From NCBI GenBank assembly GCA_044892505.1, contig CM097883.1:136896001-136960000 (forward strand): DNA of 64,000 nucleotides, given 5' to 3'. Numbering within the stretch: the first letter of the stretch is position 1; every line of letters starts with the position of its first letter. Below the pieces are notes generated by a model. It was given only the letters and a program-made list of their open reading frames with translations. It searched no databases and had not been told where the DNA came from. Both the position numbers and the translations under genes were made by a program. The stretch comes from Schmidtea nova (Eukaryota). Positions 28,129 to 53,031 of the stretch are shown one piece after another.

Positions 28129-28134
<6 letters not shown>

Positions 28135-28705
28135 CGGTTTCGGATGGGTTAAAACAAAAATAGAAAATGAATTAACAATTATTTTTAAACGCTCTAGGGA
28201 TTCCTCCATCCAAGACCTAACATAAAATGCTTACATATCACACGAGCACCCTCGATCATTTCCCTGTAATAATCGAGTTGGAAATGTGCAAGGTGTTTGA
28301 ACAATGATGGGCAGGTGAGCTCTATTGCTAAAACTACTCCCCATTTATGTTCACGGGTTCGTCTCGCTGCCGATAGAAGGACTTACGCTTTACTTTTATC
28401 TAATCGCATTCCTCATCTTTCATTTTAATTATTTCTTTTCTGCCCCCTGTCTTTATAATAATTCAATTTTTCTTTCAGCCCCCTTCTTTGCAATATCAAC
28501 AAATAATCTTTAATCAATTATAATATGTTATTTCTTTAATACTCTTATTGTTTATTATATTTATGTCAATCCTATTGTTAATTCTAATTTATATTTAATT
28601 CATTTGAAATTTTTAATAAATTACTTTATCTCATATACTTTACAATAAACTAAATACAAAGCAAAAATTAATTAATAAGCACAAATTTACAAATCACAAA
28701 AATTC

Positions 28706-29296
28706 CTATTCGAAATATTTAGTAATGTCTTCATCGGAGACTACCAAATTCATGGTTAAATCAATTTCCGGAATTTCTTTTGACTGTTGTGCCAATTGCT
28801 GAAGCACTTGCTTCTTCCAGCGACGCTGACGCGCGCCCATCTTGCTCTTCTTCTTCTTTTTACATTCTGGAATGGCTATACTATTTGGTGTAATTGCTGC
28901 TGTTGTTACTTGAACCTGAGATGGTTCATCTGTGTTTGTTCCTTTCGAACATCCGGATTTCTCTTCAGCCCAATGCTGACTGGTAATGGGTCTGATGAGT
29001 TGTCTTAACTCTTGATTTAAATAAGTAGCTGTCACCGATTTTAGGCACTTTTTCAGCTCCATCTTTGTAGCATCCAGTTCCATTTGCACTTCGCTGTTTG
29101 CTCGCTGTGAACGCTGGGTTTTGAGGATTTGTGCTTTCATTTGTTCTGGACTAAACCAGCTTTTCTTCAGGTTTGAAATTATACCATCGGCTTCTTTTAG
29201 TTTTTCGGATTTTCGCAATATTTCCTTTTCGAGGCTGCGAATTATCCGCCATGCCTTATCCAATTCTGCTTGATGATTTGTTGGGTTGAATGACAT
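28706..29296 (-). CDS. LTR-encoded 196-aa coiled-coil/basic protein (intact copy)
   Basis: ATG-to-stop ORF with heptad-like N-terminal half and basic KKKKKSKMGARQRRWKK segment. A homolog is present at 813-1367. Confidence 0.65.
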   Translation of the reverse strand: MSFNPTNHQAELDKAWRIIRSLEKEILRKSEKLKEADGIISNLKKSWFSPEQMKAQILKTQRSQRANSEVQMELDATKMELKKCLKSVTATYLNQELRQLIRPITSQHWAEEKSGCSKGTNTDEPSQVQVTTAAITPNSIAIPECKKKKKSKMGARQRRWKKQVLQQLAQQSKEIPEIDLTMNLVVSDEDITKYFE

Positions 29297-30152
29297 TTTT
29301 CTAGAATTCGAGATGATTTATCAACATGAAATTTGTTATTTGGTTTAAATGTATCTCCTGCTTTCCACGACTATTACTTGCTAATTTAGGAAGAGAAAAT
29401 GATATACCTATTATACTTTCAACACTGTCGCTATGTACAGCGATCAGATACCTTCATTTACTAATATGTTTTATTTATTTACGCCTGTGCTATATACAGC
29501 AATCAGGATAAGAAATTATTTAAATACAACTCAGATCTACTGCCCTATGTACAGGGTTCAGGATAATTAATCATATTTCATTAATGATTTAGCTGTGTTG
29601 AATCTTTGATCCTATAGCCTATTGATGCTATGCTACCTGCGTGGTAGATCACTACGCTATTAAAGTTATCGATTTTGATATTGTTATATTTAAAAGTATA
29701 TTTTGTACAAATTCTTAACCGTTGTATCTGCCGCTTTATGCCCACAAACCCCAGATGTGACAATCGAAAAATATAGGTTAACATTCTATTACTCCAAAGG
29801 TGGAATCAGATTAATAATAATCACATCTATTATTATCTTATGATAAAGTTTAACTCAATCCAAATACAACTTCGTGATACTCAAAAATCTATCATTGTCT
29901 AAAAAATGAAATCAGACTTCAACTGGTTATACTATCCAGCGATAATAATAATGTTAGAAATCATGGTTAATAAAAATTCCTACCCTCTTCACGGCGCTTT
30001 ACACCGGTCGGACGGCCTAACTGTACGGAGCAGTCATTCTACTCGGCACAGTATGCCTCCATTTCACCGATTTCACGGTGATCGGAGCCCCTTGAATCAT
30101 ACGTATATCTCTACTGTAACTACTGTACATAAATAATATATATATTCGCCTC

Positions 30153-30343
30153 CTTCCACTGATTGCACAGTGGAAGAAGCTCGACCCAAAAATTATTCAT
30201 AAAAGAATATATACTTGTTCGTAATTGTTAGCATAAACTGATACTGTTGCCTCCTTCCACTGATTACACAGTGGAAGAAGCTCAATAAAGTATAAATAAC
30301 AGATAAATAGAGTCGTCTCCTTCCCCTGATTTCACATTGGAAG
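30153..30343. promoter_or_regulatory. Three dyad/hairpin repeats CTTCCACTG-N6-CAGTGGAAG in the LTR
   Basis: Copies at 30153-30176, 30254-30277 and 30320-30343 (degenerate); repeated in the 5' LTR at ~51748-51941. Confidence 0.6.
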
Positions 30344-31169
30344 AAGCTTAAATAATTCTAAATTCAAAAAAATTATAAAGCCTATATAAAACTTCATAAG
30401 ATTTATTTAGGTTTAGATAATGTTGACAGAAATCATAAAAACAATAGCAACATAAAAATCAGAAATCCATACCTGTTAGCTTCAATAAAATTGTCTCGAC
30501 AAAGTTAGCACAAAATTTGCATATAACAATAATGCTTAAAAATATCATTAACTTTAACTGAATCTGGATCAGTATTTATACTGACCAGATCAAATGCTGA
30601 ACCAATCAGCTTGAAGCCGATCATCCGACCAGCACAAATAATAAATTTTTCTAAAAAATAAAATCGATTTAATTTGTTTTAAATCGTTAACTTTTCTTGT
30701 TTTAATTTCTAAAATTTTGTAATTCTTTTTCTTTATTATTTATTTACTTCACTTTCTTTTTATTTAAATACAATTATGTATCCTTTTCTTAATACTTTTA
30801 ATAATTTCAATTCTATTTCTTCTAATTCTTGCTGTTAAATTTATATAAATTTATTACTTTTAATTCATCTTTTTCTGAAATTTCTGGTAATTATATTAAT
30901 TTTAATTTATTCTTATTTATTTCTTATTATTCTTATTATTTATGCTAAATGTGGACCAAATGGTGGATCCAACATCACTCGGGGACCCCTAAAATTGCGT
31001 CCCGCAATTAATTATACAATATTACTTATATTCAACATTCAAAAAAAAATTTTTTACGCTTGGTACATAGGTATACAGATTCACATAAGGTGAGTTTATT
31101 CTACACGTAATCACGAAGAAAATATAAAGAAAATTCAGATAATTGTTAATCAAATGTTTTGTTAAGTAA

Positions 31170-32034: not shown

Positions 32035-32868
32035 TTACATCATTTTTATTACTGCTTTGGTGATATCTGTCTCTTTTGGTGGTGTTAATTTTTGTATCAA
32101 CTTTTGTTTCAATTCTTCGTTTTCTTTAGTTAAATTTAATAAATTTTCCTCATAGCTTTGTTTTGCTTCTTCCAATCTTTCTTTAGTTTTCTTTAATTCT
32201 ATCTTCTTTTGAGTGATTACTCCTTGATATCCATTTATATCGCGCTTCATGTCTTCCTCTTTCTGCATCCCTGCTCTGATTTGTGCGTCTACTTGTTGTT
32301 GACTAAGATATAGTTCTCTCCCTGTTATTTCAATCTGGTGTCTAAATTGTTTGATTTTCTTTGCTTGATCTCTGATGAATTGTTGTCTCTTTTTGTTCCA
32401 TTTTTTACTCGATATTTCCTGATAGGTTTTCTGTTCTAATTCCTCTTTTAATTTATCGATTTCTTCAAAAAATTTCCAATCATCACTGTACGCCGTTCTC
32501 TCAATTATTTCTCTTGCTTTCGTATAAGCTTCTTTCGCTTCTTTTTTCCAATATCTTGCTTGCTCGGTAATGGAGTACATTTTTCGTTCCATTTCTGTTC
32601 GTTCTCGCTCTCTTTCTTCTCGTCGTTCTTTCATCATCTTTTTATAATATTCTTTTTGTTTCTCCAATAATTCATATAGTTCGTCTATTTTATCTTGACT
32701 TAATCGCTTTAATCTTTTGGCTTCTTTTATTTGTTCGGCTTGTCTTTCTACTTCTTTTTGTTTGTGGTAATATGCGTGGATCCAACTTTCAATTTGTTCT
32801 AAATGCTCACAAATAACTTCATCTTGATGTGCGGTAACTTCTTGTAAACTGATTTCGACGTTTCCCAT
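32035..32868 (-). CDS. Accessory ORF5, 277-aa coiled-coil protein (MG- start)
   Basis: E/K/Q-rich heptads. The frame stays open for 42 more codons after the TAA. Confidence 0.7.
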   Translation of the reverse strand: MGNVEISLQEVTAHQDEVICEHLEQIESWIHAYYHKQKEVERQAEQIKEAKRLKRLSQDKIDELYELLEKQKEYYKKMMKERREERERERTEMERKMYSITEQARYWKKEAKEAYTKAREIIERTAYSDDWKFFEEIDKLKEELEQKTYQEISSKKWNKKRQQFIRDQAKKIKQFRHQIEITGRELYLSQQQVDAQIRAGMQKEEDMKRDINGYQGVITQKKIELKKTKERLEEAKQSYEENLLNLTKENEELKQKLIQKLTPPKETDITKAVIKMM

Positions 32869-32973: not shown

Positions 32974-34407
32974 CTACGCCAACCATCCTTTTCTATCTGC
33001 CTTCTCGTTCCTTTCCATTTCTATGTATAAGGTATCCTCATACAATAATCCCCATATCTTGCTTTGTAATACAAAGTATGGTTCTCCACTTGCTAATCCA
33101 CATTCTTCTGTTGGTCTATTGCTCGTATCTACTCCTTTTTCTGTCGTGAATCTCTTTTCTATGGTTTCGTTTAAACCCCTGATTTTTATTATTACTCCTA
33201 CTCCTATTGGCCATTCGATTAAATCGTCATATTCTCCTTTGCAAAACGCAAAGAATATCGATACGTGTTTTCCAATACCTTTTCCATCTCCGTTTGGATA
33301 TACTTTCAATCTCACTTTAGCCCCGTTTTTCCATAAGTAAAATGGTGGGCTTATTACCGCAACTTTCTTGAAGCTTCTTGCATCTTCTAATTTATTTCGA
33401 AAATCCGTTATTTTCCACACATAAGGTGCTATTGGTAAATCTTTTTTCTCATCAATTTCTTGTATTAATTTGTTATATTGCACTTTCATTCCTTTTGCTA
33501 ATTCCTTGATGGCTATTATTTTCTTTTCCATCTTTTCTCGGGTTAATTCAAATTGTTCTCTCGTTTCTAATAATAGGTTCATCATTATTTTATGAGATTC
33601 TACTTCCTTTTCTAATTTCTGAATTGTTCTGTCTGTCATTTCAATATGATTGATTGCTTCTGTTTCTAAATGTTGTTTCATAGTTTGTTGAGATTTCTTT
33701 TCTTTGCATCCATATCTGTTGTAAGGACATTCTCTTGATATTTCTGTACACTTTTCCCAATGTTCTCGTAATTTCACTTCTTCGGTAGTTTCACATTTGT
33801 TTGGGCACACTCCTACATACTGTTCGCATATTTTCTCTTCTTTTATATTGATGTGCTCCTCTTCAATTTTTCTCCTTGTTTCTCGAATTTCGCAATATTC
33901 ACATGCGATTTCTTCCTCTTTGCATCCATCTCTGTGTTTCTCTTTGTCTTTTAAAATTATCGTTTCTTTACACTTTTCACATTCGCTTCTCTTTTCTTCA
34001 CAATTTTCTATATGATTTTCAATTTCGCTGATTTGTCCTTGCCATATGCACGGTGGATTTATACATTCAATTAATATGCTCATGATTTCTCTCTGAGTTG
34101 CTCTATCTGGTCTTGTTTCGTCTACCACTATTTGTCCTTCTTTACATTCTGGGCATTCTGTAATTCTCTTTAACTCTAACATTTGTACACATCTAGTGCA
34201 TAATCTACATCCACAGGCGGTTTGCTTTGGTTTTCGTAATAAATTATTACAATATCCACATAAAAATCTCTTGTTCCAATTTCTGTTTGCTGCTCTCAAA
34301 ATCTCGACTGCTCGTTCCTCTTTATCCATTTCTACAATAATATATACATACATTGATTTGTTCTTTGTTTTTGATTTTTCTAGAGTTTTATTTTTACATA
34401 TATACAA
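32974..34407 (-). CDS. TRAF-family protein (RING, TRAF zinc fingers, coiled coil, MATH); likely start ATG 34329
   Basis: CGYC..PKQTACGCRLCTRC..CPEC RING; CEYC..H..C and CPN.C..H..C zinc fingers; MATH motif YVWKITDF..SPPFY..KVRLKVYPNGDG.G.GKHVSIFF..GEYDDLIEWP. Confidence 0.9.
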   Translation of the reverse strand: MYICKNKTLEKSKTKNKSMYVYIIVEMDKEERAVEILRAANRNWNKRFLCGYCNNLLRKPKQTACGCRLCTRCVQMLELKRITECPECKEGQIVVDETRPDRATQREIMSILIECINPPCIWQGQISEIENHIENCEEKRSECEKCKETIILKDKEKHRDGCKEEEIACEYCEIRETRRKIEEEHINIKEEKICEQYVGVCPNKCETTEEVKLREHWEKCTEISRECPYNRYGCKEKKSQQTMKQHLETEAINHIEMTDRTIQKLEKEVESHKIMMNLLLETREQFELTREKMEKKIIAIKELAKGMKVQYNKLIQEIDEKKDLPIAPYVWKITDFRNKLEDARSFKKVAVISPPFYLWKNGAKVRLKVYPNGDGKGIGKHVSIFFAFCKGEYDDLIEWPIGVGVIIKIRGLNETIEKRFTTEKGVDTSNRPTEECGLASGEPYFVLQSKIWGLLYEDTLYIEMERNEKADRKGWLA

Positions 34408-34425
34408 TTTTCCGCTGCAATTTGA

Positions 34426-34761
34426 CTATGGTTCGCTCGTTGAATCTGGTTCCATACCATTCTCTAATCCATTTATTACCCAATCTAGCCATTGACCTTC
34501 TGATTCATCTCTTCTTGATAGTTGATTCATTTCCACTGTTTGTCTTAATCTCTGATTCTCTCTTGTTAGTTCTGTTATTATTCTCTGTTGCTCTTCTATT
34601 TTATGTAATTGTTCAAAAATATTGTTGTAACAATCTGCTAATATATTTTGCTTCTCTACCAGTTGATTCTGTAGTGTATTCATTGATCGAACTAACGTTT
34701 CACATTGTGCTTTCCATCGCATAATCATAGTCATTTCGGTTGTTTCTTCTCGTACATTCAT
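34426..34761 (-). CDS. Accessory ORF3, 111-aa coiled-coil protein
   Basis: ATG-initiated, Q/E/L heptads (LQNQLVEKQNIL..ITELTRENQRLRQ), packed between ORF2 and the TRAF gene. Confidence 0.55.
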   Translation of the reverse strand: MNVREETTEMTMIMRWKAQCETLVRSMNTLQNQLVEKQNILADCYNNIFEQLHKIEEQQRIITELTRENQRLRQTVEMNQLSRRDESEGQWLDWVINGLENGMEPDSTSEP

Positions 34762-34883: not shown

Positions 34884-37800
34884 CTATACTATCATCACTG
34901 CCTTTTCATCGTGTCGCTCCTCGTCTTCTATTTGCTTCCAAAATTCTTTGCCTTTGGTTCTTCTTTGGAATTCTTTCTTTACTTCTTCTGGTATTTTGAT
35001 TTTACAATTCATAATCTTTATATCTGGCCATTGTCTGGTTGGTTTCCTTTTTATTATGTCCCATAGCCATATTATTGATAATATTATTATTACTGGTACG
35101 CCTACTGCTAGTATTCCTACTCCAATTAATTCTCTTCTTTGCTTGTTAACATTGATTTGGGTGAATTTGCTCTGATTGATCATTGGTCCATATTGTCCTT
35201 TTAATTTGAGTTCCAATTGTTGTTGCTCTTGTTGTTTCCTTTTGACTTCCTGGATTACTTTTTCTGGTTTCCATTGTGCATAAGAATCTATTATTGTTTC
35301 CTCGTTTTCCATTTGTTTCGTTGTTTGATTCAGTTCTCCGAAGGTTAGCTTCTTGATTCTTCCTTTGATTGTTGTATTTGTCGATGTATAGTAGTTTCCA
35401 CATTTTTCTTGCTGGTTTCCAAATTTATCTGCCTTCTCTATTGCGCATATTTCGTATTGTTTGTCCAATTGTAGGTTCTGAATTCTGATCTCCTCTTCTT
35501 TATTCATCTTTTCGCATTGTTGTGGTTGTCTTTCTTCGTATTTCTTGATCATTGTCCAACATATTTCCACTGTTTTGTCATCTAATTTCCAAAGTATAAG
35601 TGTTGCTGAGGTTTTCCTCTCTGGTTCTGTTTGACTTTCGGTAGTGGTATGCTTCGGTTTTTGTTGACTTTTATTCTTTCGTATTGCTTTAATGGTTTTT
35701 ACTCTGTTCGGTGCTTTGTATATTCTGCATTCTAAATCTTCTTTCGTAATTTGATCATTTTCCTTTATTAGGCATATTTCATAAGTTTGATTTCTTTCTA
35801 AGCTTTTTATTTGTACTGCAGTTGTTCCTTTGACTGTTTGACATTGTGATGATTTATGTTTATTCGTTTCTTTCTCGTATTTTCTCCAGCATACTCCGTT
35901 TACGTTTTGTTCTATTCCCGTTATTTCTAACGTTATGGTTAATTTCTGGAAATTCTGGTTGTTTCTTTTCCCCATTTTTCTTGCAAACGTTATTATTTTC
36001 CCTGCTTGGAATGTTTTACAATTGGTTATTCCTTTCTTGTTTCTCTCTTTTTCCAATAAACATAGTTTATGAATTCTGTCTGTTTTTATCTTTATTATCT
36101 TGATTACTTTGTTCGTTTTACCCGCTTCCAGTTTCTGAATTTCTCTTGATTCCTTTAATTCTAATTTTTCATCGTTTCTAAACCAACATTTTTGATTTGT
36201 CATTTGTGTCTCTTCCATGTCTATTAATGTCATTGTATCCGTCTCTATTCCTTCTTCTAATCGCTTCAGTATTGTCATAATAAGTGCTATACATAACAAC
36301 TTGGAATTATAGATTACTCTTGTGGTTTGTTTCGTTCGTCTTTTTAGTTCTGGTTTATCCGTTGTATTTCTTATACTTGGTGTCGTTATCTTGGTTCTTG
36401 GTGGTTGTAAGGCTTTTCTTGATGCTGGTGCTCTTGTTATTTTAAAATAAATTGGTCCTGGAAGGTCTATTCCATTGGTGAACTCGTATCGAACTTTGGG
36501 TGTCTTGTATACTTGGCATGTAACTGTTTTGTGTGATTTTACGTCTTTGGGTTTTCTGATTGTACATATTCTGTACCATGTTTCCATATCCATTTCGTCG
36601 ATTATTATGGTCTTTCGCTCGGGGTTTGGGATTATACATCGTAATAGGTTGTTATCTCCGAGAATTTCATTCTCTTTTACCCAACATACTTGTTCAATGT
36701 ATTTTGAATTCATTATTTGTGTTGATGCTTTTTGTATTGGTACTTCCATTTCCACTGATATCTCTTGTTCCGTTGCTTCACATTGTCCCATAAGTGTTAT
36801 GATTATTGCAAACATTAATACTTCTGGTCTGAATAATGGATTCCTTCTGTAACTTGTTCCTTTCTTTCCATGATTGCTTTTAGGGTTGTCTTCTCTTTGT
36901 TCTTTGGATTCGTGGTTCTTTGTATTTCTCTCTTGATTCTCATCTTCTTTGTTGGTTTGTTCGTGGTTATCTGGGTTTCCGTGATTATTTTCATCATCAT
37001 CGTCTTTATTTCTCTCGTCGTCCTTGCTTTCTTCATCGTCATCCTCATTGTTAGTATTATTATCTCCCCCTGGCTCGTTAAAAATGTCGTCCTCGACATT
37101 ACTTGTTTCTATTAGTTTTGCATAATATAGTGATGTCAAGTTACTTGCTTCGAATTCTTGGAATTCTATATCTTCGGGTATCTTTTTGTTGTCTAACTGA
37201 TACTGTATAATTTCTTTCTTGGCTTTTATCCAACTTTGGAGGTGTGTTCTCATCAGTTCTTTCCATTTGACTACCTTTTCCGTTTCTTTAGGCTTGTTTG
37301 TAAATCTCAGATCTTCTCTTCTCATGAAAATTTCTACAATTTCGGGCCATATATAAGTTATGAGTGCGCTTTTGATACACCAATTTCGATTATTCTCCAT
37401 AAACTTGTTGACTTTAAATGCTGGTTTATTTGTATTTGGTATTTTCCAGTTTAATACTTCTTCTGTCAATTTGATGTTTTGCATCATTGTCAATACGCTT
37501 GGTCCTTTTACGGTTTCTGTTAAATAATCTATTTCTTCCTGGTTTGTTATCGTTTTAATGAAATTCAACATTTCCCAGTTTGGACCTAATAATGTCACGT
37601 CTAATATTGAGTTGTCTTTGCTAGTTTTTCCGATTAATCCTGCGCCTGCTTTATATAACTCTTCTAATACTTTGATTTTTGTTTTTGCTCTTGCTGCGTA
37701 TACCATAAGGGTGTCTCCTTTTTCGTCTATCATATTCATATCACATCCACATTGATGCATTAATTTTGCGATTTCGATTACTTTGCTGTCTTTTCCTGCT

Positions 37801-38147
37801 CTCAATGCTCTATGAATCGGCATTATTCTTTCTTTTGTTAATAAAAACGCAACTGGCATTTCTCTTTTTATAGTTATTATATCATCTCCATTATATATTC
37901 CTTTCGCGTACGCGTGTACCTTTTCTACTATCGCGCCAAGTATTTCTAAGGCGTATTTAGTATTTTTGAATTCTGGTAATAGTTCCTTTGCTTTTTTGTG
38001 TATTGCATCTAATCTTTCTTGGTAATCTATCTTCGCGTTGAACAATGGTGTGAGTATCCTTTTACTTTCTTCTTCTTTCTGATTTATTGCTTGATTAAAT
38101 TTTTGTAGCTTGTGTCTTTGCGTATTTGTTTTTGACACCATACCCAA
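34884..38147 (-). CDS. ORF2 (~1085 aa): ankyrin repeats, acidic linker, signal-like segment, four Cys-containing FN3-like repeats, C-terminal TM
   Basis: DMNMIDEKGDTLMVYAA ankyrin; VLMFAIIITLMGQCEA signal-like segment; repeated CW..C..I.I..L...Y.IC..C..Y modules; LIGVGILAVGVPVIIILSIIWLW TM. In the -1 frame, overlapping the ORF1 end. Confidence 0.8.
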   Translation of the reverse strand: MGMVSKTNTQRHKLQKFNQAINQKEEESKRILTPLFNAKIDYQERLDAIHKKAKELLPEFKNTKYALEILGAIVEKVHAYAKGIYNGDDIITIKREMPVAFLLTKERIMPIHRALRAGKDSKVIEIAKLMHQCGCDMNMIDEKGDTLMVYAARAKTKIKVLEELYKAGAGLIGKTSKDNSILDVTLLGPNWEMLNFIKTITNQEEIDYLTETVKGPSVLTMMQNIKLTEEVLNWKIPNTNKPAFKVNKFMENNRNWCIKSALITYIWPEIVEIFMRREDLRFTNKPKETEKVVKWKELMRTHLQSWIKAKKEIIQYQLDNKKIPEDIEFQEFEASNLTSLYYAKLIETSNVEDDIFNEPGGDNNTNNEDDDEESKDDERNKDDDDENNHGNPDNHEQTNKEDENQERNTKNHESKEQREDNPKSNHGKKGTSYRRNPLFRPEVLMFAIIITLMGQCEATEQEISVEMEVPIQKASTQIMNSKYIEQVCWVKENEILGDNNLLRCIIPNPERKTIIIDEMDMETWYRICTIRKPKDVKSHKTVTCQVYKTPKVRYEFTNGIDLPGPIYFKITRAPASRKALQPPRTKITTPSIRNTTDKPELKRRTKQTTRVIYNSKLLCIALIMTILKRLEEGIETDTMTLIDMEETQMTNQKCWFRNDEKLELKESREIQKLEAGKTNKVIKIIKIKTDRIHKLCLLEKERNKKGITNCKTFQAGKIITFARKMGKRNNQNFQKLTITLEITGIEQNVNGVCWRKYEKETNKHKSSQCQTVKGTTAVQIKSLERNQTYEICLIKENDQITKEDLECRIYKAPNRVKTIKAIRKNKSQQKPKHTTTESQTEPERKTSATLILWKLDDKTVEICWTMIKKYEERQPQQCEKMNKEEEIRIQNLQLDKQYEICAIEKADKFGNQQEKCGNYYTSTNTTIKGRIKKLTFGELNQTTKQMENEETIIDSYAQWKPEKVIQEVKRKQQEQQQLELKLKGQYGPMINQSKFTQINVNKQRRELIGVGILAVGVPVIIILSIIWLWDIIKRKPTRQWPDIKIMNCKIKIPEEVKKEFQRRTKGKEFWKQIEDEERHDEKAVMIV

Positions 38148-41100
38148 ATTTTTCTGAATAACGCTTCCTTTTCGACTTCTAGTTTGTATTCTTTTTCGTT
38201 CTTACTAATATTTATTTTTCCTCTATTCATTAGTGCTAACATCGTTCTCTGATCGCACGGAATCTCTAATAAGTATCTCAATAGTGCATTCTGTCCTTCG
38301 CTAAATTCTTTGTTTATATCTAATACCCATGTTTTATTATTCGGCCATTTCCATTGTATTAGTTTCCATATTGTTTTAGTGTTTCCTTTCCGAATCGCTT
38401 CCTTCATAATTTCTCCTTTGATTAGTTCATCGATTTCCCATGTGAGGTTGGTTGTTATATGTTTTAGTATCATTTGATTTTCACTCATTATTGCATGGTT
38501 TAAAACTGTGTTTCCTCTTCTATCCCGAGCTGTCCAGTTGAATTCTGCGTTTATCAATATATCTACTATTTCTTTATCTGCTAATTTTAGTGTTGCTGTC
38601 ATCATTGGCGTTTCTAATTCTCGATTTACAATGTCTAGATTTTGATTCGTTTCTTTTGCTATTTTCAAAAATTCTTTTACTTTTTCCGTTTTACCCCAAC
38701 TTATGGCATTGTGTAGTGCAGTTGCACCTCCTGTATCTTGTAATACGAGTATCTCTGGTATTTTCTTTAGTAATTCTATTATAACTGGTTTGGTTGGGCA
38801 TCCTCGTGCGTAATCACTGATTATTTGTCGTATATCCCATAAAACGTCTTTTTCTCGTCTGATTTCCCATCTTTCGTTTATTTCTTTGGCTTTTCGTACG
38901 ATTTCTTTGTCAACATCGATTTTCTCACTGTCTACTTGACTAGTTGTGTTAATTTCTTCCGCTCTGAGCATATTTATTCTGATGGTTTGTGATCTCGTCA
39001 TGGATTTCTCTTCCGGTATCATTATTTGTTTCGAGTTTATTACTTTTGCTTCCATGGCACATATTTTCCCTGTTCTGTCCTTTAATCTCATTGTTCCAAG
39101 ATCGATGATTATTTCTTTAAATAGTGTTGGCATTAAATCTGTTCCGATTATACATGGTACGCTTAAAGCTGGTATTACTGCTACATACGTTTCGATTTCT
39201 ATATTTTGGTGTCGTATTTTTACCCACCATCTTCCTGCAACTTCAACTATCTCTTTGCTACATGCTTTTACATGAACATTTGTTCTTTCAATCTCTTGTC
39301 TCTGTTCTTGCGGTATCCATTTGATATCTATCGCTGAAATGTTTGCTCCTGTATCTATCATCGCTTCTATTTCTTTTCCATTTATTTCTATGGTTGTAGT
39401 TAATACTGGTCCTGTATTCGATGACATGACTGCAATTGTGAGTGAATCTTCTTGCGGATCCATACTTCTACATCGTCTTAGTTTATAATCTTCTGGTATA
39501 ATTGGATATAAAGTTGTCATTGGCATCATTTGCATTGCTCTGTGTCCTGATACCTGTAATGGTTCTTGGTACATTGTTGGTGGAGGTGCGTGACATTTCC
39601 ATGCTTCTGCTGGATTCTTGTCGTTATATTGTGGTGCTTGGTTTCTGTACCTTTGTCCTCCTTCACAGTCGTCATTATTATCATCGTCATCGCTGGAATC
39701 ATCTTGGGTTTTATCTCCTCTTATTCTTTCCAATAATCCTTTTCTTTCTCTTTTTAATTGTAATCTCGCTTGTTCATCTGTCATTATCTTTTTGAATTTT
39801 CTTCCCACGTCTTCGTCTGTTCCTTTCATTTTTGCCAGTATTTTTAATAATCTTTTTATTCTATGAATATCTTTGGAGTGACCATGTAACACCATCGTTT
39901 TTGCTAAAAATGGTAAAAATCCTGCTATTAATTTCCAATTAACTTTCTTTTCTCTTTTGTAAATATCAAAACATGCTAGCATTTGTGTGATTATCACTCG
40001 TATTATTTGTATGATCAAAATTACACCTAATATTCCGGCCATCATTTGTCCGAAAATTAAAAATCGTCCCCACATTGCTCTCATCATATTTTCTGTCGCT
40101 TTCCTAAAGTGTGCTGGTGACAATAATAATTCATAATTTGGTCCTCCTTGATAACTTGTTCCTCCTGTTATCGTTACAATGCTAGATAATACCGCTTCTC
40201 TTCTAGCTGGAAATAATATATTTTGTCGTGCTGCTTCGAGATCTTTTGCACTGTAAATTCCTCCGTTATTTACATCTATATTGGAAAATTTTCGTCCTTT
40301 TGAAAGTTGCATCAATTCAAATTCTCTAGGTGGTTGTACTTCTGATCTTGACGGAAACATGACCCAATTTCCGTCTGGTTTCTGATATAATGGTCCATAT
40401 GCATTACTGCAATTGAAAGGGTTTGGTTCAAAACTGACTGGATTAATGATCCTTGTCACTGGTTGCACATATCTTATTTTCCCTTTATATTCAATTTCTA
40501 ATTCGTTGGTACATTGTCCTTGTCGTAGTCTGGTCGTTGATGCTATGCTTGCTTGTGTCTTTCGGCATATATATACATACATAACTTCTCCAACTACTCT
40601 TCCAAAATGACCTTCGTTAAGTGGTAGTAATGGCATCGCACTATCCGGGTTTGTAATTGCTACTGCTAATTTCGTCTTTAATATTTCTCTGTTCAATATA
40701 CAATCGTTGTTAATGAGATCGTAGTATATTTTCTCCATTGATGCTTGACCTTTATGAAATAAAAAATCCAATTTGTTATTTAAATATACTTGTAATTTGA
40801 TGTCTGTAGTATCTATCTTGGGTTTTGCATTTGGTGCTGCTTGTCTTGATACATAAATACCTGGATAATTTGTTTCTAACATAGAAACACCACATTTTAA
40901 TGTGGGTTTTCCTTTTACAAACCTCATTCCTATATTTGCGTTTGATGTAACCAATACTGTTGGCGTATCTCTCATCCTCACCTCTTTTTCTTGTACTTTA
41001 GCGGTGAACGGTTTCTCTCCTTTTACTGTCTCCTGTAGACGTTTTCCTCTTGCTACTTCATCATCTTCTTCTTCCTGAAAGATTTTTCCTTGTACTTCGT

Positions 41101-44100
41101 CGAACTCTGCTTCATTTAATAATTGTAATTGGCATTCATTCGCTTTTGCTCTGTATGTTAAGGTCGACATACCGGTTTGACAGGTACTGGCTTCAATTTT
41201 ACACATTGATAACGTCTTCATTTCTCCTGTTGCTGGGTCAAAATATGCTTCATATGCTTTTAATTCTACCGTATACGTGTCTATTACTACCATGTTAGTT
41301 GCTGGTACTCCAAATATCGGATATGTTGCTCCTTGACAGTAACCTTCTCCTCCTGTGATAGCTCCTGCTACATAATAAGTTTGTTGTAGTATTACTCCAA
41401 CTTTTCCTTTTATCTTTATTCGATCTCTTGTTTCGACTTCTCCATGTCTAAACAATTTATTGCAATCTTCTCCTTGTAACATTATCGCTTCTCTTTCCGT
41501 TCCTGGCATTACGATTGCAGAGTAGTGGCGATGTCCACAATAAAAAGCGAATCTTGTTTTATATATTTTACACTCGTTAACTGTTGTCTTTATTAATTCG
41601 GCTTCCTGATATACGTGATATATTTGTTTACTATGTAATACTTTTAATTCTGTTGGAGTTGCATCTTTGCATTGTTCGGTTCCTCTTAATGAATATTTTT
41701 CTCCTAATGCCATCTGGTCGCAATCAAATACTTCGAACGTTGTTGCTCCTTCAACGCTAATTAGCCATATTAATATCATCATTATGATTGAATTCAGGTT
41801 TAGTGAAGATTTTCCACTTCCTGTTCCTGACTTTTCTTTTTCTAATTCCCCTAAAATTTCTTCAAATTTCTTTTTCATATTCTTTGCTTGACCGTTTCTT
41901 TGATTCGTTTTAGCAAATGTTTCCCATCCTCCTTTACTGATGACGTATGGCTCTATTTCTCTTGTTATGATACTTGCTGTATTTTTGATATGCTTCTCTA
42001 TTGCCGTAGATTTTGGATTACCTCTACTCAATGTTAATAAGTTATAAATTGTATACGCAATTGCTATCACATATTTATTATCATTTTCTGCATCTTCAGT
42101 TAACCTCTTTATCAACGTTGTGGTCCCTTGCCAATCTAAATGGCTTGATTTTGTCTTTTCTTTTATTAGTTCGGGTAAGATTGGTGCGATTGCGCTATGT
42201 AATGCTTTAGCCTTGTCGCTTATTTCGTTTATTCTCCACCATTTTTTCAATTCTGGATCAATTATCGCCAGTATTTCCATTAATGCTTTTGATATCCATC
42301 CTTCGCCTTGACATTTTTGCGTTGTTTCTTTGTCTTTGGCTTCTGCTATTTTGTTAAGTTTCTTTAAACATATTTCCCATTTCTCTTGTCTCCTTTCCTC
42401 TTTGGTTTTGTTGATTGTGTTTGCTGGACCTGTCTTTGGTCTACCTCTAGATCGTTTATCCATTGTTGTACCTGTTTCAATCAATCTGGTTTCTCGTCCG
42501 GTTTCTTCTGTAATATCTCTTGGTTCGTTATTTCTCTGTTCCCACCATTTTTCCATTTCTTGTGTTAATCGTTCGTTTTCTGTATTTGCTCCTCTTGCTT
42601 CTTCTTCAGAGATTTCGTTCACTTCTTCTATCTCTATTTCTTGCTCAACTTCATTTTGGGTATTGATTGCTTGTGATGTTGTGGGTAACTCTTGTACTCT
42701 TTCGAAAATATTATTGCCTTTTTCTTTTGTCAAATTAGTTAATTCTTCTAGCATATCATCGCTGTCTGTTAAGATCTCTTCTACTCCGTATGGTTGTGGT
42801 AGTGTTCTTTCTTGAACTTTAATTGATGTTGTTTCGTATTGTCCTGCGCTTGTTCCTGGCTTTATCTGCATCGTCTTTCTTGGTTTCTGAGTGTCTTCAC
42901 TTTCTTTTACTCTTTTCTCTTTAAGTGTTAATGGTTGACCTGCTATTGCGTCTACTGTTAACGTATTTGCCAGTTCTAACTGTGCTGGCGTTATCCAAAT
43001 TTCCATATCGTTTTCTAATGATCGTCCTTGATGTTGTAGATGAAATGGTGGTTCATATTTTAATCTCTTTTTAACATCCCGAATCTTTTCAGTTAATCTT
43101 ACCCAAAGCTCTTCTTTTTCTCGATCTGGATATATTATCCTTAAATGTATTTTCTGCGGTGGTTCTTGGGAGTTTTCCTGGTTTCTCCATTTCTTGATTA
43201 CATTGCCTAATTGTTCTGGGCACCACTCGTTAACTCGTTTATATTCTGCTACTGCCTTGGCTACTTTTCTTAAACTGATTATATCTTCGCCGCCTGCTAC
43301 GAAAAATTCGGCTAATCCTTTGATCGTTCGCCTTTTTCCTTGTACATTCCCTTTTAGTAATTCTATAAGTTCGTCAGCTTTTCGTCTTTGTGTTTCTAAC
43401 CATATTGCTGCGGTTTCTGGTCCATCTAAATCTGTTGGCATGACTTTTCTTGTCACCATACAAACTCTTCTGATTTCTGGTTCATATTTATCTTCCATTT
43501 CTGGTCTAAATTCCTCTTCATATATACCTCCTTTTGCTTTCCAGCATTTCTCTTTAACATCCCAGTGTTTCTCTACTGGTGTTAATCGGCGTTCGTTGAA
43601 GTTTAATTCTCCTAATACATTTTCCCATTCTGGCTGTATCTGCCATCTTCGATAAATTTCAATTATTTGTCTTAGTTTGTGCATCTCTTCTCTTCGACGT
43701 TCTTGTCTCCTTTTTTCGTCTTTTGGTGTTTCTCTTGGTGTATCATCCATTCTGATGACATGAATTGTTTGGTAATTATCCCATATACCGATTTTATATA
43801 ATCGTCTCTCATCATGATCTCCTAGTACGTGTTCATTATATTTTATGATGATATCATCTTCTAATTCGTCTTCTTTTTCCCGTTGTAGTAAAGTTTCATT
43901 GATAACATCAACTAATTCTTCTACTGTGCAATCCGCGATTACTTCAATTTCTTTTGTGTCCTCGTTTGGTAATTTCACTTTGATTTTTAAATCTCCTATT
44001 TCTCCTCGTTTAAACATTGCTTTTCCCATTTTCGCGATCACTTTCCAAGTCTTGTACGGCGAATATCTCGTATGGCTGGTATCTCGTATATTTTCGATGC

Positions 44101-47100
44101 ATTGTTTTAATTTCTCATATTCAGCTTTCGTTAATTCTTCTCTATTCTTGTCGATTTGTTGAATAATTTGTTCTATTAGGGAATTTAAATTTTCTCTAAG
44201 AATTCTTTCTTTCCTTTCTGTTAACTGTGGTTTAATTCTCATCTCAAAACACATATTTGCTTCCTTTGCTATTTCTTGTAGATTCTCCTCTTTCTTATTG
44301 TCACATATTGATAATGTTGTTATCTCTCCTGGCCATATGCCTGTTTCTACCAAATGCGTTGCTCGTCTTACAAGTTCGTTTCCTGAATATATAAATTTGT
44401 TTTTATACGAACTTCCCAATCTGTCTTCTACCCATCGATAAATTTCGTTCATGCATGGAGATTTGATCCAAATTCTTGGTAAACATTCGTTTATTTCTAT
44501 TAAAATTATGTATTCGTGGAGTGGTTCTTCTAATAGTTTGACGACGTATCCTGATAATATCTCTACTTCACGACTTTGTAATCGTTCTTTATAGTTCATT
44601 CGGAATACTGCTCTTATAAATTTTCGATATCGCTTCTTATCAATAAATTCCTCGTTATAAATCACTTCTAACGCATTATCTAATAGTTTCCGAATTTCAT
44701 CTTCTTTTATTTGTATATTTTCTGGCGTCTTCGCTACTTCTATCTTGTTGTCTTCATTTTCTGGTTCTTTTAGCATATCTCCTGCTAAACTTCTGACATC
44801 ACTGTCACTTTCTACATCTGAAAATTCTCTAGTTAAGTTTCTTAACATATTTATGTGTGCTGTCTGTTCTACTTTATCTGGTACATTCTTTGGTGATATT
44901 TCTTCCTTTTTGTCATTGGTTCCTGATTCTTCTATTTGGCCTCTTCGTTTCTCTATTTCCATTGCTTTTCTCTGTTTGATTCTCTCTTCAAATATCTTCA
45001 ATGCTCTACTTTTGACTTTTGTTACTGGATTTGATTTCTCTTCATCGTTATTTTCTTCTATTTCCTGGATAACTGTGACTTTCATTTTATTCATTGGTAC
45101 TCCTAAATCTTTCCATATGTCGGTTGGTTTCAATTTTATTGCTGCTTCGTCTTCTGTCTGTAAAATTGCTTCTCGGGGTAGTTTCGTCATTCCCGGAATC
45201 GTCTTGTTTACTTTATTAATTAATACTCCTACTTCCTCTTTTTCATCATATTCAAATCGAAATACATGATCGTTTGGCATGACTACCAACATCCTTTTTT
45301 GTTCAATAACTTCTTCGTTTTCTTGTACTATTTCTTTTTGGTTTTCTTCATCCTCCGGATTTGGGTTTATCCGGTTTGTTTCTGGTTCAATATCTTCTTT
45401 GTTATCTCTTGTTTGATTCGTTGCTCTCATCATATTAATTCTCAATGGTTGTCGTTCTCTTTCTTGTCGTTTCTGTTCGTCTTCTCTTTGTATTCTTGCC
45501 CATTCTTGAGCATGTCGTGCTTGACTTTCTCGATTTAGTCGTTCATTTTCACTTTCTACTTTTCTCATCATATTCATTTGTTGTTGATTCGTTTGTTGAT
45601 TTCCTCTCGGTGTATTGTTTATTAACTCTGTTAATCTTTGAACTTCTTGTAATAAATGTATCTCCTTGGTGGTACTTTTGTTTTGATTATAACTACTCTG
45701 TTGATTTCCATAATTCTGACGGTTTCCGTTATTCTGTTGATTCACATAATTTTGTCGATTTCCGTTGTTCGACCAATTCCTTTGTTGGTTGTTTTGTTGT
45801 TGGCAGTTCCTTGCCGTATGACCTGGTTGTCCACAGTTAAAACATGATCTTTGATAACATCTATTTTCCGAATGTCCTTTCCTTCCACACGTTTTACAAT
45901 TTAAGTTCACGAAACATTCTTGTTGCCAATGTCCTAACTTTCCACAGGTTTGACATTGCTTTGTCTGTCCTTGCGTATTGTAATGATTTTGGTTTCCGAA
46001 ATTTTGTACTTTGTTTCCTTCATTTCTCCTTTGAGGTGGTGGTCGATTTAATTGCTGTGAATTCGGAATATGGTTATTTATCTTTATTGCTTGTTCGTTT
46101 TGTGTCGTATCCATTGCTAGGTAAATTCTTCCTTCGCTTCCGATCATATGTAATTCGAATCTGTTGGCGACTTCCAACGCTTCATCTATTGTCTTACAAC
46201 CTTGGCATCCAACTTGTGCTCTTATATCGGGTCTTCTCAATCCCCCCACAAAAATTGCTGCCATTAATTCTGGACTCATTGGACTATTTTGATTGAATGC
46301 TAGTTTAGCCAATTTCTTTAATTCACTTGCATATACTGCATTTGATTCATTAACTTTTTGTTTCCTCATTGAAAATTCGGTAAACGCTTCATTTAATACT
46401 TTATTTATTCCAAACGTTTGCTGGAAAAAATTCTTTATCTTTTCCCAACTATCGAGTTGATCATCTGAATTTTTAGCTTCTAAATATAAATCTAACGCAC
46501 TGTCTTTTAAATATAGCTGAATTCTGCTCCTTATCGTTTCTGGATTCCATTTACATACTTCTACAAATATACCAAATTCTTTTAAAAACGTTTCTAACTT
46601 GCTGGCATCTCCATTGAATGGTTCTCCAGTAAATTTATCTTTGATTTCTTCTTTATGTTCGTTCATTTCTATTCCACTGTCTTGTGTCGTTTTACTCTCG
46701 TTTCCTCTTGTTTCACTAGTATGCTCGTTATTCGTTTCGTTTGAATTGTTATCAATTTCTGCTTCTTCTACTTCTGTATTTATTGACTCGTTATCTGATG
46801 CTTCTGTATTATTATAATTATCGTAGGTTTCACTTGAACTTTCTTCTGTTTCACTTTCGTTAGTTTTTGTTAATTTACTGTTTTCGATTTTTGACTTTTC
46901 TACTATTACTCTTCTTGATTTACTTCCTTTAGGATTTGTTTTCTTTGTAACACTGGTTGCTCTTTGTTTCGATTTACTTCTCTGTGAATTATCAACTTTT
47001 TGAGTTGTAGCACTAACTGCTCTTGATCTCAATTTATTTCTCTGTGAATTATTAACTTCTTGGTTTTTAACTGTTCTTGATCTCGGTTTACTTTTCTTTG

Positions 47101-47152: not shown

Positions 47153-47624
47153 TTAGTTTGACTTGTTCTGTTCCGTGTATCTAAATTAAAAAGTCACTTC
47201 AACGATACATCATTGTTATCGTTGCGCTTTTATTCCTCATTATTGGGTTTCCATTGTTTCCCCATTCCCGGTTTCCCCTTTATTTAAGTCTATTTAATTT
47301 ATCTATTCACTGGTAACAATTATCTATATGGTCGTAATAATTATCTATCGTTATCAAATAAATTCATTACTTCTCCCTCGGTCTCCCAAATAAATTTGTC
47401 GCTCAGACGCTTTAATTCCCCTGAGTTCTCCTGACTCAGTTTTATCCTTTTATTACTATTCATTATATCGTCATTACTCATTATTCTCACTAATCAACTC
47501 TAATTTCTCCTATTCTTATTTCTACTTGTATGCATACTGTATCTCTAGTTTACTTAATCATCTTTACTCGTATTACTCAAACTCTAATGCTCACTATTCT
47601 TACGTCGTCGACGACTACAACTCT

Positions 47625-48699: not shown

Positions 48700-48832
48700 C
48701 TCATATTAAATTCTCATTATGAATTCTCATATTAATTCTCACTATGAGTTCTCATATTAATTCTCATTATGAATTCTCATATTAATTCTCATTATGAATT
48801 CTCATATTAATTCTCATTATGAATTTTCATAT
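48700..48832. repeat. Leader tandem array 3: 25-bp unit x~5
   Basis: ttctcatattaattctcattatgaa repeated. Confidence 0.9.
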
Positions 48833-48876: not shown

Positions 48877-49338
48877 TTATAAATACACAATAATTCTTTC
48901 GTCTATTTCGAGATTGCACATCGGGCATTTGTCGCAGTTGGCTGCACAGATTCTACAAAACCGAAAATGTCCACATGGTGAAAACATGATTTTATTCTCC
49001 CTTTCTCGACATGTGTAGCAGAGTTTAAATTTCTTAGCTGTCTCAGTTCCTTGTATTGTCCACTTGTGGTATGTTGGAGTTAATTGTTGTTCTAACTGTC
49101 TGCATTTTATATTTAGATCAGCATTTTCTAATCTCGTTCGGTACCACTTGTATCTAGTTGTTATATCTATTTTGTCTACTCTTTCCATTATTTTTATCAG
49201 CTCTGTTGTCTCTTCGGTTTCTGTCGTGGGTTCTGTGAATCCGGATTCTCTTATTCGACTTATTTTCTCGCATAATTCATCATATGTTTTGTTTTCCGTG
49301 TTTAAGAATTCTTCTATTTCTTTTAATTTGTCGTTCAT
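48877..49338 (-). CDS. 153-aa protein with C-terminal IAP/MDM2-type RING finger
   Basis: CYTC..IMFSPCGHFRFCRICAANCDKCPMC..IDERIIVYL at the extreme C-terminus; no BIR domain. Confidence 0.8.
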   Translation of the reverse strand: MNDKLKEIEEFLNTENKTYDELCEKISRIRESGFTEPTTETEETTELIKIMERVDKIDITTRYKWYRTRLENADLNIKCRQLEQQLTPTYHKWTIQGTETAKKFKLCYTCRERENKIMFSPCGHFRFCRICAANCDKCPMCNLEIDERIIVYL

Positions 49339-49703: not shown

Positions 49704-49721
49704 ATCCCGGCTGAGCCCCCA
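49704..49721 (-). other. Primer-binding site complementary to the tRNA-Pro 3' end
   Basis: Minus strand TGGGGGCTCAGCCGGGAT, 16/18 identical to the canonical tRNA-Pro PBS TGGGGGCTCGTCCGGGAT, 6 nt inside the 5' LTR. Confidence 0.85.
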
Positions 49722-50304
49722 AATTTATGTTGTCGGTTTCGGATTGGTTAAAACAAAAATAGAAAATGAATTAACAATTATTTTTAAACGTTCTAGGGAT
49801 TCCTCCATCCAAGACCTAACATAAAATGCTTACATATCACACGAGCACCCTCGATCATTTCCCTGTAATAATCGAGTTGGAAATGTGCAAGGTGTTTGAA
49901 CAATGATGGGCAGGTGAGCTCTATTGCTAAAACTACTCCCCATTTATGTTCACGGGTTCGTCTCGCTGCCGATAGAAGGACTTACGCTTTACTTTTATCT
50001 AATCGCATTCCTCATCTTTCATTTTAATTATTTCTTTTCTGCCCCCTGTCTTTATAATAATTCAATTTTTCTTTCAGCCCCTTTCTTTGCAATATCAACA
50101 AATAATCTTTAATCAATTATAATATGTTATTTCTTTAATACTCTTATTGTTTATTATATTTATGTCAATCCTATTGTTAATTCTAATTTATATTTAATTC
50201 ATTTGAAATTTTTAATAAATTACTTTATCTCATATACTTTACAATAAACTAAATACAAAGCAAAAATTAATTAATAAGCACAAATTTACAAATCACAAAA
50301 ATTC

Positions 50305-50894
50305 CTATTCGAAATATTTAGTAATGTCTTCATCGGAGACTACCAAATTCATGGTTAAATCAATTTCCGGAATTTCTTTTGACTGTTGTGCCAATTGCTG
50401 AAGCACTTGCTTCTTCCAGCGACGCTGACGCGCGCCCATCTTGCTCTTCTTCTTCTTTTTACATTCTGGAATGGCTATACTATTTGGTGTAATTGCTGCT
50501 GTTGTTACTTGAACCTGAGATGGTTCATCTGTGTTTGTTCCTTTCGAACATCCGGATTTCTCTTCAGCCCAATGCTGACAGGTAATGGGTCTGATGAGTT
50601 GTCTTAACTCTTGATTTAAATAAGTAGCTGTCACCGATTTTAGGAACTTTTTCAGCTCCATCTTTGTAGCATCCAGTTCCATTTGCACTTCGCTGTTTCT
50701 CGCTGTGAGCGCTGGGTTTTGAGGATTTGTGCTTTCATTTGTTCTGGACTAAACCAGCTTTTCTTCAGGTTTGAAATTATACCATCGGCTTCTTTTAGTT
50801 TTTCGGATTTTCGCAATATTTCCTTTTCGAGGCTGCGAATTATCCGCCATGCCTTATCCAATTCTGCTTGATGATTTGTTGGGTTGAATGACAT
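50305..50894 (-). pseudogene. Frameshifted copy of the LTR ORF
   Basis: cgctgtttctcgc here vs cgctgtttgctcgc in the 3' LTR. The 1-bp deletion splits the ORF into 80-aa and 127-aa pieces. Confidence 0.85.
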
Positions 50895-52170
50895 TTTTCT
50901 AGAATTCGAGATGATTTATCAACATGAAATTTGTTATTTGGTTTAAATGTATCTCCTGCTTTCCACGACTATTACTTGCTAATTTAGGAAGAGAAAATGA
51001 TATACCTATTATACTTTCAACACTGTCGCTATGTACAGCGATCAGATACCTTCATTTACTAATATGTTTTATTTATTTACGCCTGTGCTATATACAGCAA
51101 TCAGGATAAGAAATTATTTAAATACAACTCAGATCTACTGCCCTATGTACAGGGTTCAGGATAATTAATCATATTTCATTAATGATTTAGCTGTGTTGAA
51201 TCTTTGATCCTATAGCCTATTGATGCTATGCTACCTGCGTGGTAGATCACTACGCTATTAAAGTTATCGATTTTGATATTGTTATATTTAAAAGTATATT
51301 TTGTACAAATTCTTAACCGTTGTATCTGCCGCTTTATGCCCACAAACCCCAGATGTGACAATCGAAAAATATAGGTTAACATTCTATTACTCCAAAGGTG
51401 GAATCAGATTAATAATAATCACATCTATTATTATCTTATGATAAAGTTTAACTCAATCCAAATACAACTTCGTGATACTCAAAAATCTATCATTGTCTAA
51501 AAAATGAAATCAGACTTCAACTGGTTATACTATCCAGCGATAATAATAATGTTAGAAATCATGGTTAATAAAAATTCCTACCCTCTTCACGGCGCTTTAC
51601 ACCGGTCGGACGGCCTAACTGTACGGAGCAGTCATTCTACTCGGCACAGTATGCCTCCATTTCACCGATTTCACGGTGATCGGAGCCCCTTGAATCATAC
51701 GTATATCTCTACTGTAACTACTGTACATAAATAATATATATATTCGCCTTCTTCCACTGATTGCACAGTGGAAGAAGCTCGACCCAAAAATTATTCATAA
51801 AAGAATATATACTTGTTCGTAATTGTTAGCATAAACTGATACTGTTGCCTCCTTCCACTGATTACACAGTGGAAGAAGCTCAATAAAGTATAAATAACAG
51901 ATAAATAGAGTCGTCTCCTTCCCCTGATTTCACATTGGAAGAAGCTTAAATAATTCTAAATTCAAAAAAATTATAAAGCCTATATAAAACTTCATAAGAT
52001 TTATTTAGGTTTAGATAATGTTGACAGAAATCATAAAAACAATAGCAACATAAAAATCAGAAATCCATACCTGTTAGCTTCAATAAAATTGTCTCGACAA
52101 AGTTAGCACAAAATTTGCATATAACAATAATGCTTAAAAATATCATTAACTTTAACTGAATCTGGATCAG

Positions 52171-52204
52171 TATTTATACTGACCAGATCAAATGCTGAAC
52201 CAAT
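52171..52204 (-). promoter_or_regulatory. Candidate LTR promoter: TATAAATA inside a palindrome plus CCAAT box
   Basis: Minus-strand TATAAATA at 52178-52171 within ctgg-a-tcagtat-tt-atactga-ccag; aaccaatcag ~22 nt upstream. Same arrangement at 30573-30606. Confidence 0.4.
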
Positions 52205-53031
52205 CAGCTTGAAGCTGATCATCCGACCAGCACAAATAATAAATTTTTCTAAAAAATAAAATCGATTTAATTTGTTTTAAATCGTTAACTTTTCTTGTTT
52301 TAATTTCTAAAATTTTGTAATTCTTTTTCTTTATTATTTATTTACTTCACTTTCTTTTTATTTAAATACAATTATGTATCCTTTTCTTAATACTTTTAAT
52401 AATTTCAATTCTATTTCTTCTAATTCTTGCTGTTAAATTTATATAAATTTATTACTTTTAATTCATCTTTTTCTGAAATTTCTGGTAATTATATTAATTT
52501 TAATTTATTCTTATTTATTTCTTATTATTCTTATTATTTATGCTAAATATTGACCAAATGGTGGATCCAAGTAATTTTCATGGAAGAAGTTCGATGAGCA
52601 CACAAAAGCCACAGTAGGTATTTTGGAAAGATATTCAACCATCACTAGTATCCTTAGTCAACTTATACTTAGTATCTAATATCAAAGGAAAGAGTGAAAT
52701 GGGGCTTCAAGACAATAATATTTTGCAAAAAATTTGAAAAGTTTTTTTTTCATTTATGCTTGGTCCTATGTGTTATATTACTTCTATAAAGCATGTAGAA
52801 TTTTTAGACAAAATAAGTAACAATTTTTATGAAATTGAAAAACAAGCAAAGATGACAAAGTTAAGAGAAAGAAAATGACGGGGATGAAAATACTCTCTAC
52901 AAAAGATAAATTATCTTTTTTTGTTGAAAAATAAAATGTTAAACAAAAATATAATTCACTGAATATTTTCTATATTAATTAAAATTTAAAAAGTCTTAAA
53001 AATATATTAAATAAATTATTAAAATAAATAT

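Follow-up and report, generated by a model that had tools for sequence, protein, structure and literature searches.

A complete TRAF gene carried as selected cargo by Burro-like giant LTR retroelements of Schmidtea nova

The window analysed here, a stretch of 64,000 nucleotides from the planarian Schmidtea nova, contains a full-length TRAF gene. The gene is genuine, long-standing cargo of a known class of element and is under selection. Its carrier is a 24-kb retrovirus-like element with the Burro layout, a giant LTR retroelement of a kind known from planarians, and comparisons among copies indicate that the TRAF is held under purifying selection in three element families. Such selection demonstrates a use for the gene without telling which use this is. 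We predict, with a probability of about one half, that the TRAF keeps the element-expressing cell alive by way of the host TRAF survival pathway. Beyond the literature that we found, the analysis adds the full TRAF architecture, the selection acting on it, its origin among planarian TRAFs, a conserved acceptor-like motif and a form of the element that lacks pol.

Among 3,897 candidates in the same genome, 82 of the 94 best-scored loci carry the TRAF at 92-100% identity and constitute family A; 71 of these are free of stops within the match and 11 contain stops. The remaining scored loci comprise one at 81% and 11 at 71-72%, the latter representing family B, whose TRAF is ~70% identical to that of the window. 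A MATH profile search revealed a third dispersed family, D, which has pol, the same gene order and a TRAF that is ~48% identical. Dispersed 476-codon frames number in the dozens among the 150 best MATH matches in this genome, and each of the 12 that were fetched proved to be family-D cargo. Gene order is the same in A, B and D, with the TRAF on the 3′ side of the polyprotein, and the part examined of the Burro1-like family E holds a MATH domain alone, inside the polyprotein, as published for Burro1. All copy counts are lower bounds. A gene present only in this copy, which the first-pass annotation had named as the outcome that would undo its reading, is thus not what we observe: there are at least 82 sister loci, and two further element families (B and D) carry the gene as well. 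At one locus (L024; 2-3028, plus strand), a frame encoding DNA polymerase B2 and endonuclease VII, which we take to be Polinton-like, adjoins a family-B copy.

Architecture of the TRAF gene and of its carrier

The TRAF is encoded by a minus-strand frame that is open without interruption from stop to stop (32974-34425). A RING, TRAF zinc fingers, a coiled coil and a MATH domain had been proposed to lie in order in one reading frame between LTRs, and this architecture is confirmed by Pfam, PDB searches and AlphaFold (Table 1). The domain features of the TRAF family (TRAF2/3/5-like) are present, with an N-terminal RING followed by TRAF zinc fingers, a coiled coil and a C-terminal MATH/TRAF-C domain. 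Pfam reports MATH (E 3.6e-20), TRAF-mep_MATH and zf-TRAF, and makes no call for the RING in this copy; the N-terminus matches RING-zinc-finger structures of TRAF5/6/2 in the PDB (best E 1.3e-14), and the C-terminus matches the TRAF domains of TRAF3/5/2 (E 1e-20). The AlphaFold model, which was built from 38 sequences, has a mean pLDDT of 90.8 and places a 71-residue helix (225-295) ahead of the MATH sandwich.

Table 1. Features of the TRAF gene and its carrier element, in window coordinates.
Feature	Position	Strand	Remarks
5′ LTR	49728..52570	-	outer TG missing in window copy
Primer-binding-site-like 18-mer	49704..49721	-	identical or near-identical in families A, B, D
153-aa accessory ORF, IAP-type C-terminal RING, no BIR	48877..49338	-	Pfam; XIAP RING E 2.9e-9
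Polyprotein, first part	38084..46666	-	gag CCHC knuckles, weak Bcl-2-like stretch, Monjiviricetes-type fusion glycoprotein, aspartic protease, ankyrins
Polyprotein, second part	34884..38141	-	FN3-like repeats, hydrophobic segment, conserved tail at end
111-aa accessory ORF	34426..34761	-	conserved in families A, B, D
Splice-acceptor-like motif, T-rich, ends TGTAG	34332..34345	-	two bases before ATG; kept in families A, B, D
TRAF accessory ORF, full-length	32974..34329	-	451 aa from likely start ATG; Pfam, PDB search, AlphaFold
RING finger, residues 24-62	34144..34260	-	eight cysteines; usual His ligand replaced by Cys, as in planarian host TRAFs
Zinc fingers, residues 89-220	33670..34065	-	four with four ligands and a fifth with three
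Coiled coil (TRAF-N)	33445..33657	-	predicted helix 225-295
MATH / TRAF-C domain, residues 303-440	33010..33423	-	Pfam, PDB search, AlphaFold
277-aa coiled-coil-like accessory ORF	32035..32868	-	conserved in families A, B, D
187-aa accessory ORF, hydrophobic segment	31170..31733	-	conserved in families A, B, D
3′ LTR, TGTTG...CAACA	28129..30974	-	contains 196-aa ORF; abuts (AT)n run

The span initially assigned to the gene, 32974..34407, was sound as to the reading frame and not as to its upper end, since position 34407 marks an in-frame TTG. Translation likely starts at the ATG at 34329, because the family-B frame has a stop just upstream of the equivalent ATG and because a conserved acceptor-like motif precedes this ATG. 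In every locus where our pattern found the start (44 of 50 in family A and 9 of 11 in family B), the TRAF ATG is preceded at a distance of 1-3 bases by the T-rich stretch ending in TGTAG; the pattern matched 0 of 13 family-D loci, and the motif is visible in the family-D locus L081. A TAG occurs 2-3 bases ahead of the ATG in four of the five accessory ORFs of the window, and 21 of 445 ATGs in the element interior have a YAG at two-base spacing. Such an arrangement suggests that splicing or trans-splicing at the acceptor before the ATG would yield a subgenomic RNA for the TRAF.

The carrier is assigned to the Burro class by its layout, compared with the published description of these elements. 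Long LTRs enclose a giant gag-env-protease polyprotein in which a Mononegavirus-type env is in frame, and the cargo related to apoptosis and ubiquitin consists of MATH, ankyrins, an IAP-type RING without BIR and a Bcl-2-like stretch in the polyprotein that matches Bcl-xL weakly (E 0.4). On the coding strand, the 153-aa RING ORF is followed by the polyprotein and then by four short ORFs, of which the TRAF is the second; Pfam gives no hit for the 277-aa and 187-aa ORFs. The LTR copies flanking the TRAF measure 2,849 bp and are 99.58% identical, and no target-site duplication was seen at the window copy. The primer-binding-site-like 18-mer is presumably of the tRNA-Pro type. A short deletion and a frameshift split the polyprotein in the window copy only, among the copies compared. 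The FN3-like repeats are named from a weak Pfam hit in a relative. The polyprotein tail conserves WPD(I/V)K and W.QIEDEE across families and has 16 invariant residues over nine copies from three families; its WP motif is reminiscent of cytokine-receptor box 1.

Several further features of this region can be noted. The polyprotein end (34884-36000), with its FN3-like repeats, hydrophobic segment and tail, resembles a type I membrane receptor. The 196-aa LTR ORF (28706-29296, also 50305-50894) is open in the 3′ LTR and split in the 5′ copy by a one-base difference, and it has homologues in families B and D as well as near several unrelated loci. The LTRs vary far more than the interior: in three sisters the interior is 95-97% identical to that of the window copy and the LTRs are ~80% identical, and elsewhere in the genome the closest LTR reaches 90%. 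Tandem arrays with 41-bp and 25-bp units occupy 47617-48252 and 48696-48833, between the RING ORF and the polyprotein. Outside the element, the 3′ LTR has as its close neighbour a single frame of 503 codons that encodes an N-terminal RING (25659-27170, plus strand), and a G-patch/GCFC single frame, which we assume to be TFIP11-like, adjoins the 5′ LTR (53032-55014, minus strand). The window also holds DEAD-box and helicase-C exons of an SPB4-like RNA helicase (11730-12767 and 15365-16048, plus strand) and a DUF4371 transposase-like frame pair (19345-21701, minus strand).

Burro/GYPSM1 elements are described as planarian giant Gypsy-like LTR elements (PMC6431247), and the likeness extends to the giant polyprotein, gag CCHC knuckles, ankyrins, Bcl-2-like motif, long LTRs and MATH_TRAF cargo, and to an env related to mononegavirus fusion proteins that is in frame between gag and pol, before the protease. 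The window copy differs in that the RT, RNase H and integrase that follow the protease are absent. That source places MATH_TRAF_C in Burro1 and, for an element of D. tigrina, on an accessory ORF; its section on Burro names the domain alone, with the accessory ORF upstream, whereas here a complete RING-zinc finger-coiled coil-MATH gene lies downstream. An analysis of selection, a splice acceptor and a form lacking pol go unmentioned in that section. Our literature search turned up no LTR element described as carrying a full-length TRAF, although these ORFs may already figure in the supplement of Grohme 2018.

The earlier view that viruses usually bind host TRAFs rather than encode full-length ones overstated the rarity of such cargo, given MATH_TRAF_C in Burro (PMC6431247) and the TRAF of a megalocytivirus, a fish DNA virus. 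The latter, ORF111L of ISKNV, is a pro-apoptotic protein of 296 aa with a RING, a coiled coil and a MATH domain, and is reported to be similar to host TRAF2 (PMC3352826); the element TRAF differs from it by having five zinc fingers and by grouping with planarian TRAFs. Our fold search also lists TRAF-like proteins from iridoviruses and giant viruses. Complex retroviruses and foamy-like ERVs likewise carry accessory genes, and the window element, like them, has a series of short ORFs on the 3′ side of its polyprotein, most of them after an acceptor-like motif. The element is nevertheless Gypsy-like by the description of Burro, and no retrovirus (PMC6431247).

Selection on the TRAF and a pol-less form of the element

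Estimates of dN/dS by the NG86 method, for 54 of 56 loci (two were dropped for a stop or frameshift), are 0.19 within family A, 0.11 within family B and 0.10 within family D, and 0.15 (A-B), 0.15 (A-D) and 0.10 (B-D) between families, with dS to family D near saturation. A GY codon model yields 0.155. The neutral evolution that the first-pass annotation offered as its second refuting outcome is therefore contradicted by the values obtained from its proposed dN/dS check, which indicate constraint (0.10-0.19 by NG86). Each of the 27 Cys and His residues in the RING and zinc fingers is conserved in 53 or more of 54 copies; within family A, constraint is weakest on the MATH domain (omega 0.35, versus 0.10-0.20 elsewhere). 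The TRAF is not special in this respect, since all five accessory ORFs are similarly constrained (0.08-0.24, where dS can be estimated), and constraint elsewhere in the element is stronger than on the TRAF (RT 0.007, env 0.06-0.07).

Stops in 11 of the 82 family-A loci and a raised omega among singleton variants are the observations that would suit a neutral passenger, or a one-off insertion in the window copy. Among 47 stop-free family-A copies, shared variants (65 nonsynonymous to 74 synonymous) give an omega of 0.20 and singletons one of 0.44, a difference that fits selection during replication followed by decay after insertion; stops and singletons are what such decay predicts. With three families at saturated synonymous distance and dN/dS of 0.10-0.15, we give neutrality almost no credence, and we regard it as refuted by copy number, NG86 estimates and codon model together.

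Pfam detects no RT, RNase H or integrase in the window copy, from which ~1,000 codons are missing in frame near position 39015, between the protease and the ankyrins, where relatives hold these enzymes. All three are present in the family-A sister L103 and in families B, D and E; the window copy is thus a non-autonomous derivative of a Burro-like family, and the notion that the whole family lacks pol was rejected. Protease-to-TRAF spacing could be classed in 58 of the 82 family-A loci (5 others are interrupted and 19 have no scored protease match): 48 are short, and so pol-less by this measure (46 at 4.7-4.9 kb and 2 shorter), versus 10 that are long and pol-bearing (7.8-7.9 kb). Direct inspection confirmed the short form in the window copy and in two sisters, and the long form in L103, the others being classed by spacing. 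The same junction is crossed by all 37 scored places, the best 37 of 1,345 candidates in a ranking that favours pol-less copies.

Pol-less copies retain gag, env, protease and all accessory genes. Two pol-less sisters, one of them sitting inside a microsatellite, have LTRs that are 100% identical and 4-bp target duplications, from which it seems likely that the form moves in trans, with enzymes supplied by pol-bearing sisters. Copies with and without pol are interspersed on the TRAF tree (9 changes, versus a shuffled mean of 8.2) and include two identical TRAF pairs, making recombination between the forms likely; pol-less elements would thereby swap TRAF alleles with their helpers. Selection on the TRAF within the pol-less form is consequently inseparable from this exchange, and the proposal that pol-less copies keep the gene under selection of their own, for which variants shared among them alone give an omega of 0.27, cannot be set apart from it.

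Origin among planarian TRAFs

Phylogenies, although weakened by long branches, place the element TRAFs within the planarian TRAF repertoire. In a full-length FastTree analysis of 72 rows, ten element TRAFs form one clade (support 99) that sits within a planarian clade (99) containing 9 of 12 non-element TRAFs of the same genome and named Dendrocoelum and Dugesia TRAFs. In a MATH-only tree (IQ-TREE LG+G4) of 50 rows, from which two host rows with long branches and part of the redundant rows were left out, the accessory TRAFs again form one clade (100/99), which groups with an unnamed protein and with the MATH domain of the family-E polyprotein (94/90). Both trees were built without viral TRAFs. 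Because long branches meet at the node uniting element TRAFs with the family-E MATH, a single capture is likely rather than firm. A HMMER search likewise returned named Dendrocoelum and Dugesia TRAFs as the best single-domain-set database relatives; a word-indexed homolog search gave no match at E ≤ 0.001 among 3,565 candidates.

Codon use bears on the age of the capture. The frequency of A at third positions is 0.53 in the window TRAF and 0.55 in the polyprotein, compared with 0.30-0.35 in six host TRAFs, and this match to an A-rich element points to long residence. Taken with the single element clade, it makes it likely that the TRAF was captured once, long ago, from the planarian repertoire. 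The first-pass annotation had called the gene a captured, processed host gene. Host derivation is upheld by the trees. Processing is not, because host TRAFs too are often encoded in a single frame, so that intronlessness is no proof of an mRNA intermediate: of the 19 non-element TRAF loci fetched, 6 have a single frame that extends from the RING through the MATH domain, and three have split matches that fit introns.

The cellular TRAF2-like proteins of planarians (Dendrocoelum TRAF-2/4/5, Dugesia TRAF2-like A and the S. mediterranea TRAFs treated in PMC7586133 and PMC6109357) share with the element TRAF the domain order, the Cys-for-His RING, a clade of the full-length tree and, in several loci, single-frame coding; they differ in identity (~25-34%) and in having host codon use. 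The Cys-for-His RING occurs in all 8 matched host TRAFs of the same genome and in 9 of 10 element rows, with His in 27 of 44 matched database rows, and its status as an element innovation was accordingly rejected. The idea that the element seeded the host TRAF expansion is likewise unsupported: none of the 17 non-element rows of the MATH tree from this genome nests in the element clade, and no host locus among those sampled falls inside it. MATH exons are clustered by the dozen on distal C2, at about 405-455 Mb, and several host TRAFs (loci L061-L072) are encoded in single frames and arranged as tandem or inverted pairs.

Possible functions of the element TRAF

The first-pass annotation supposed that the captured gene had been repurposed to tune immune or death signalling, which is plausible. 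Among the possible roles, one in survival is favoured because host TRAF RNAi raises cell death, as described for S. mediterranea (PMC7586133), because IAP-type and Bcl-2-like modules are present in the same element, and because the RING and fingers of its TRAF are intact. The protein would trimerise through its coiled coil and MATH domain, like cellular TRAFs, and together with the IAP-type RING and the Bcl-2-like module it might hold off cell death during element transcription and packaging. In TRAF3, a serine stretch has a role in peptide binding. The MATH groove of the element TRAF departs from human TRAF3 at this stretch and varies between element families, and host receptors may therefore not be its ligand. 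A complex prediction for the TRAF-domain trimer with the tail of the element membrane protein scored 0.03, which is evidence neither way. Also speaking against a survival role, the closest studied viral TRAF promotes apoptosis (PMC3352826).

The divergent groove, and the weaker constraint on MATH within family A, would suit a protein that joins or competes with host TRAFs and thereby blunts an antiviral or inflammatory response, with no direct part in survival. The element has an env and may face antiviral sensing, and decoys of innate signalling are frequent among viruses. We consider such inhibition unlikely, since simple dominant-negative TRAFs have no RING, whereas here the RING and all zinc fingers are retained. 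Less probable still is a role internal to the element, as an adaptor or ubiquitin ligase for its own proteins in particle assembly, budding or signalling by its FN3-membrane protein. The TRAF does travel with a second RING and with the membrane protein bearing the conserved tail, and pol-less copies keep gag, env, protease and TRAF together; the family-E element, however, has MATH only, and a full TRAF may thus be dispensable for some Burro-like elements. An opposite effect, in which late apoptosis releases or spreads particles, has its model in ORF111L, which induces caspase-8 apoptosis (PMC3352826), and iridovirus TRAFs are among the top fold matches. We judge this quite improbable, given that a genomic element must pass through surviving stem or germ cells, that the present one also has IAP-type and Bcl-2-like modules, and that planarian host TRAFs are pro-survival (PMC7586133).

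Protection of the expressing cell, which we prefer to these alternatives, can be extended to a wider picture that is doubtful as a whole. Burro-like elements would be complex retrovirus-like agents with a spliced survival cassette, consisting of a whole TRAF that was captured before the families split and is expressed from its own subgenomic RNA, along with the IAP-type RING and the Bcl-2-like module. The polyprotein MATH of Burro1-type elements would be a remnant of the same capture, pol-less copies would outnumber their helpers yet keep the cassette, and hundreds of copies might contribute appreciably to the TRAF signalling of planarian stem cells and to the TRAF expansion that has been reported. 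An anti-apoptotic Burro1 gene has reportedly been presented at a conference, a report that our literature search did not recover.

Burro elements have been proposed to meddle with host apoptosis and ubiquitination, in a 2019 review that offered no test of the idea (PMC6431247), and a complete, selected and separately encoded TRAF makes that proposal testable. Because the element TRAF is ~30% identical to host TRAFs, RNAi can target the element gene alone. BURRO1 is expressed upon PIWI loss, and in the smedwi-2 experiments of the same report BURRO1 RNAi did not rescue the animals (PMC8532177), and so these experiments give no hint of a large effect at the level of the host under their conditions.

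An expansion of TRAFs in planarians has been reported (PMC6109357), and piRNAs are described as degrading many traf, E3-ligase and ankyrin mRNAs (PMC6824462), the same classes as the element cargo. Direct cross-targeting of host TRAF mRNAs by element piRNAs is a weak candidate, with 3 matches of at least 20 nt between three element genes and 19 host loci. Planarian TRAF counts and piRNA-target lists may nonetheless include element cargo.
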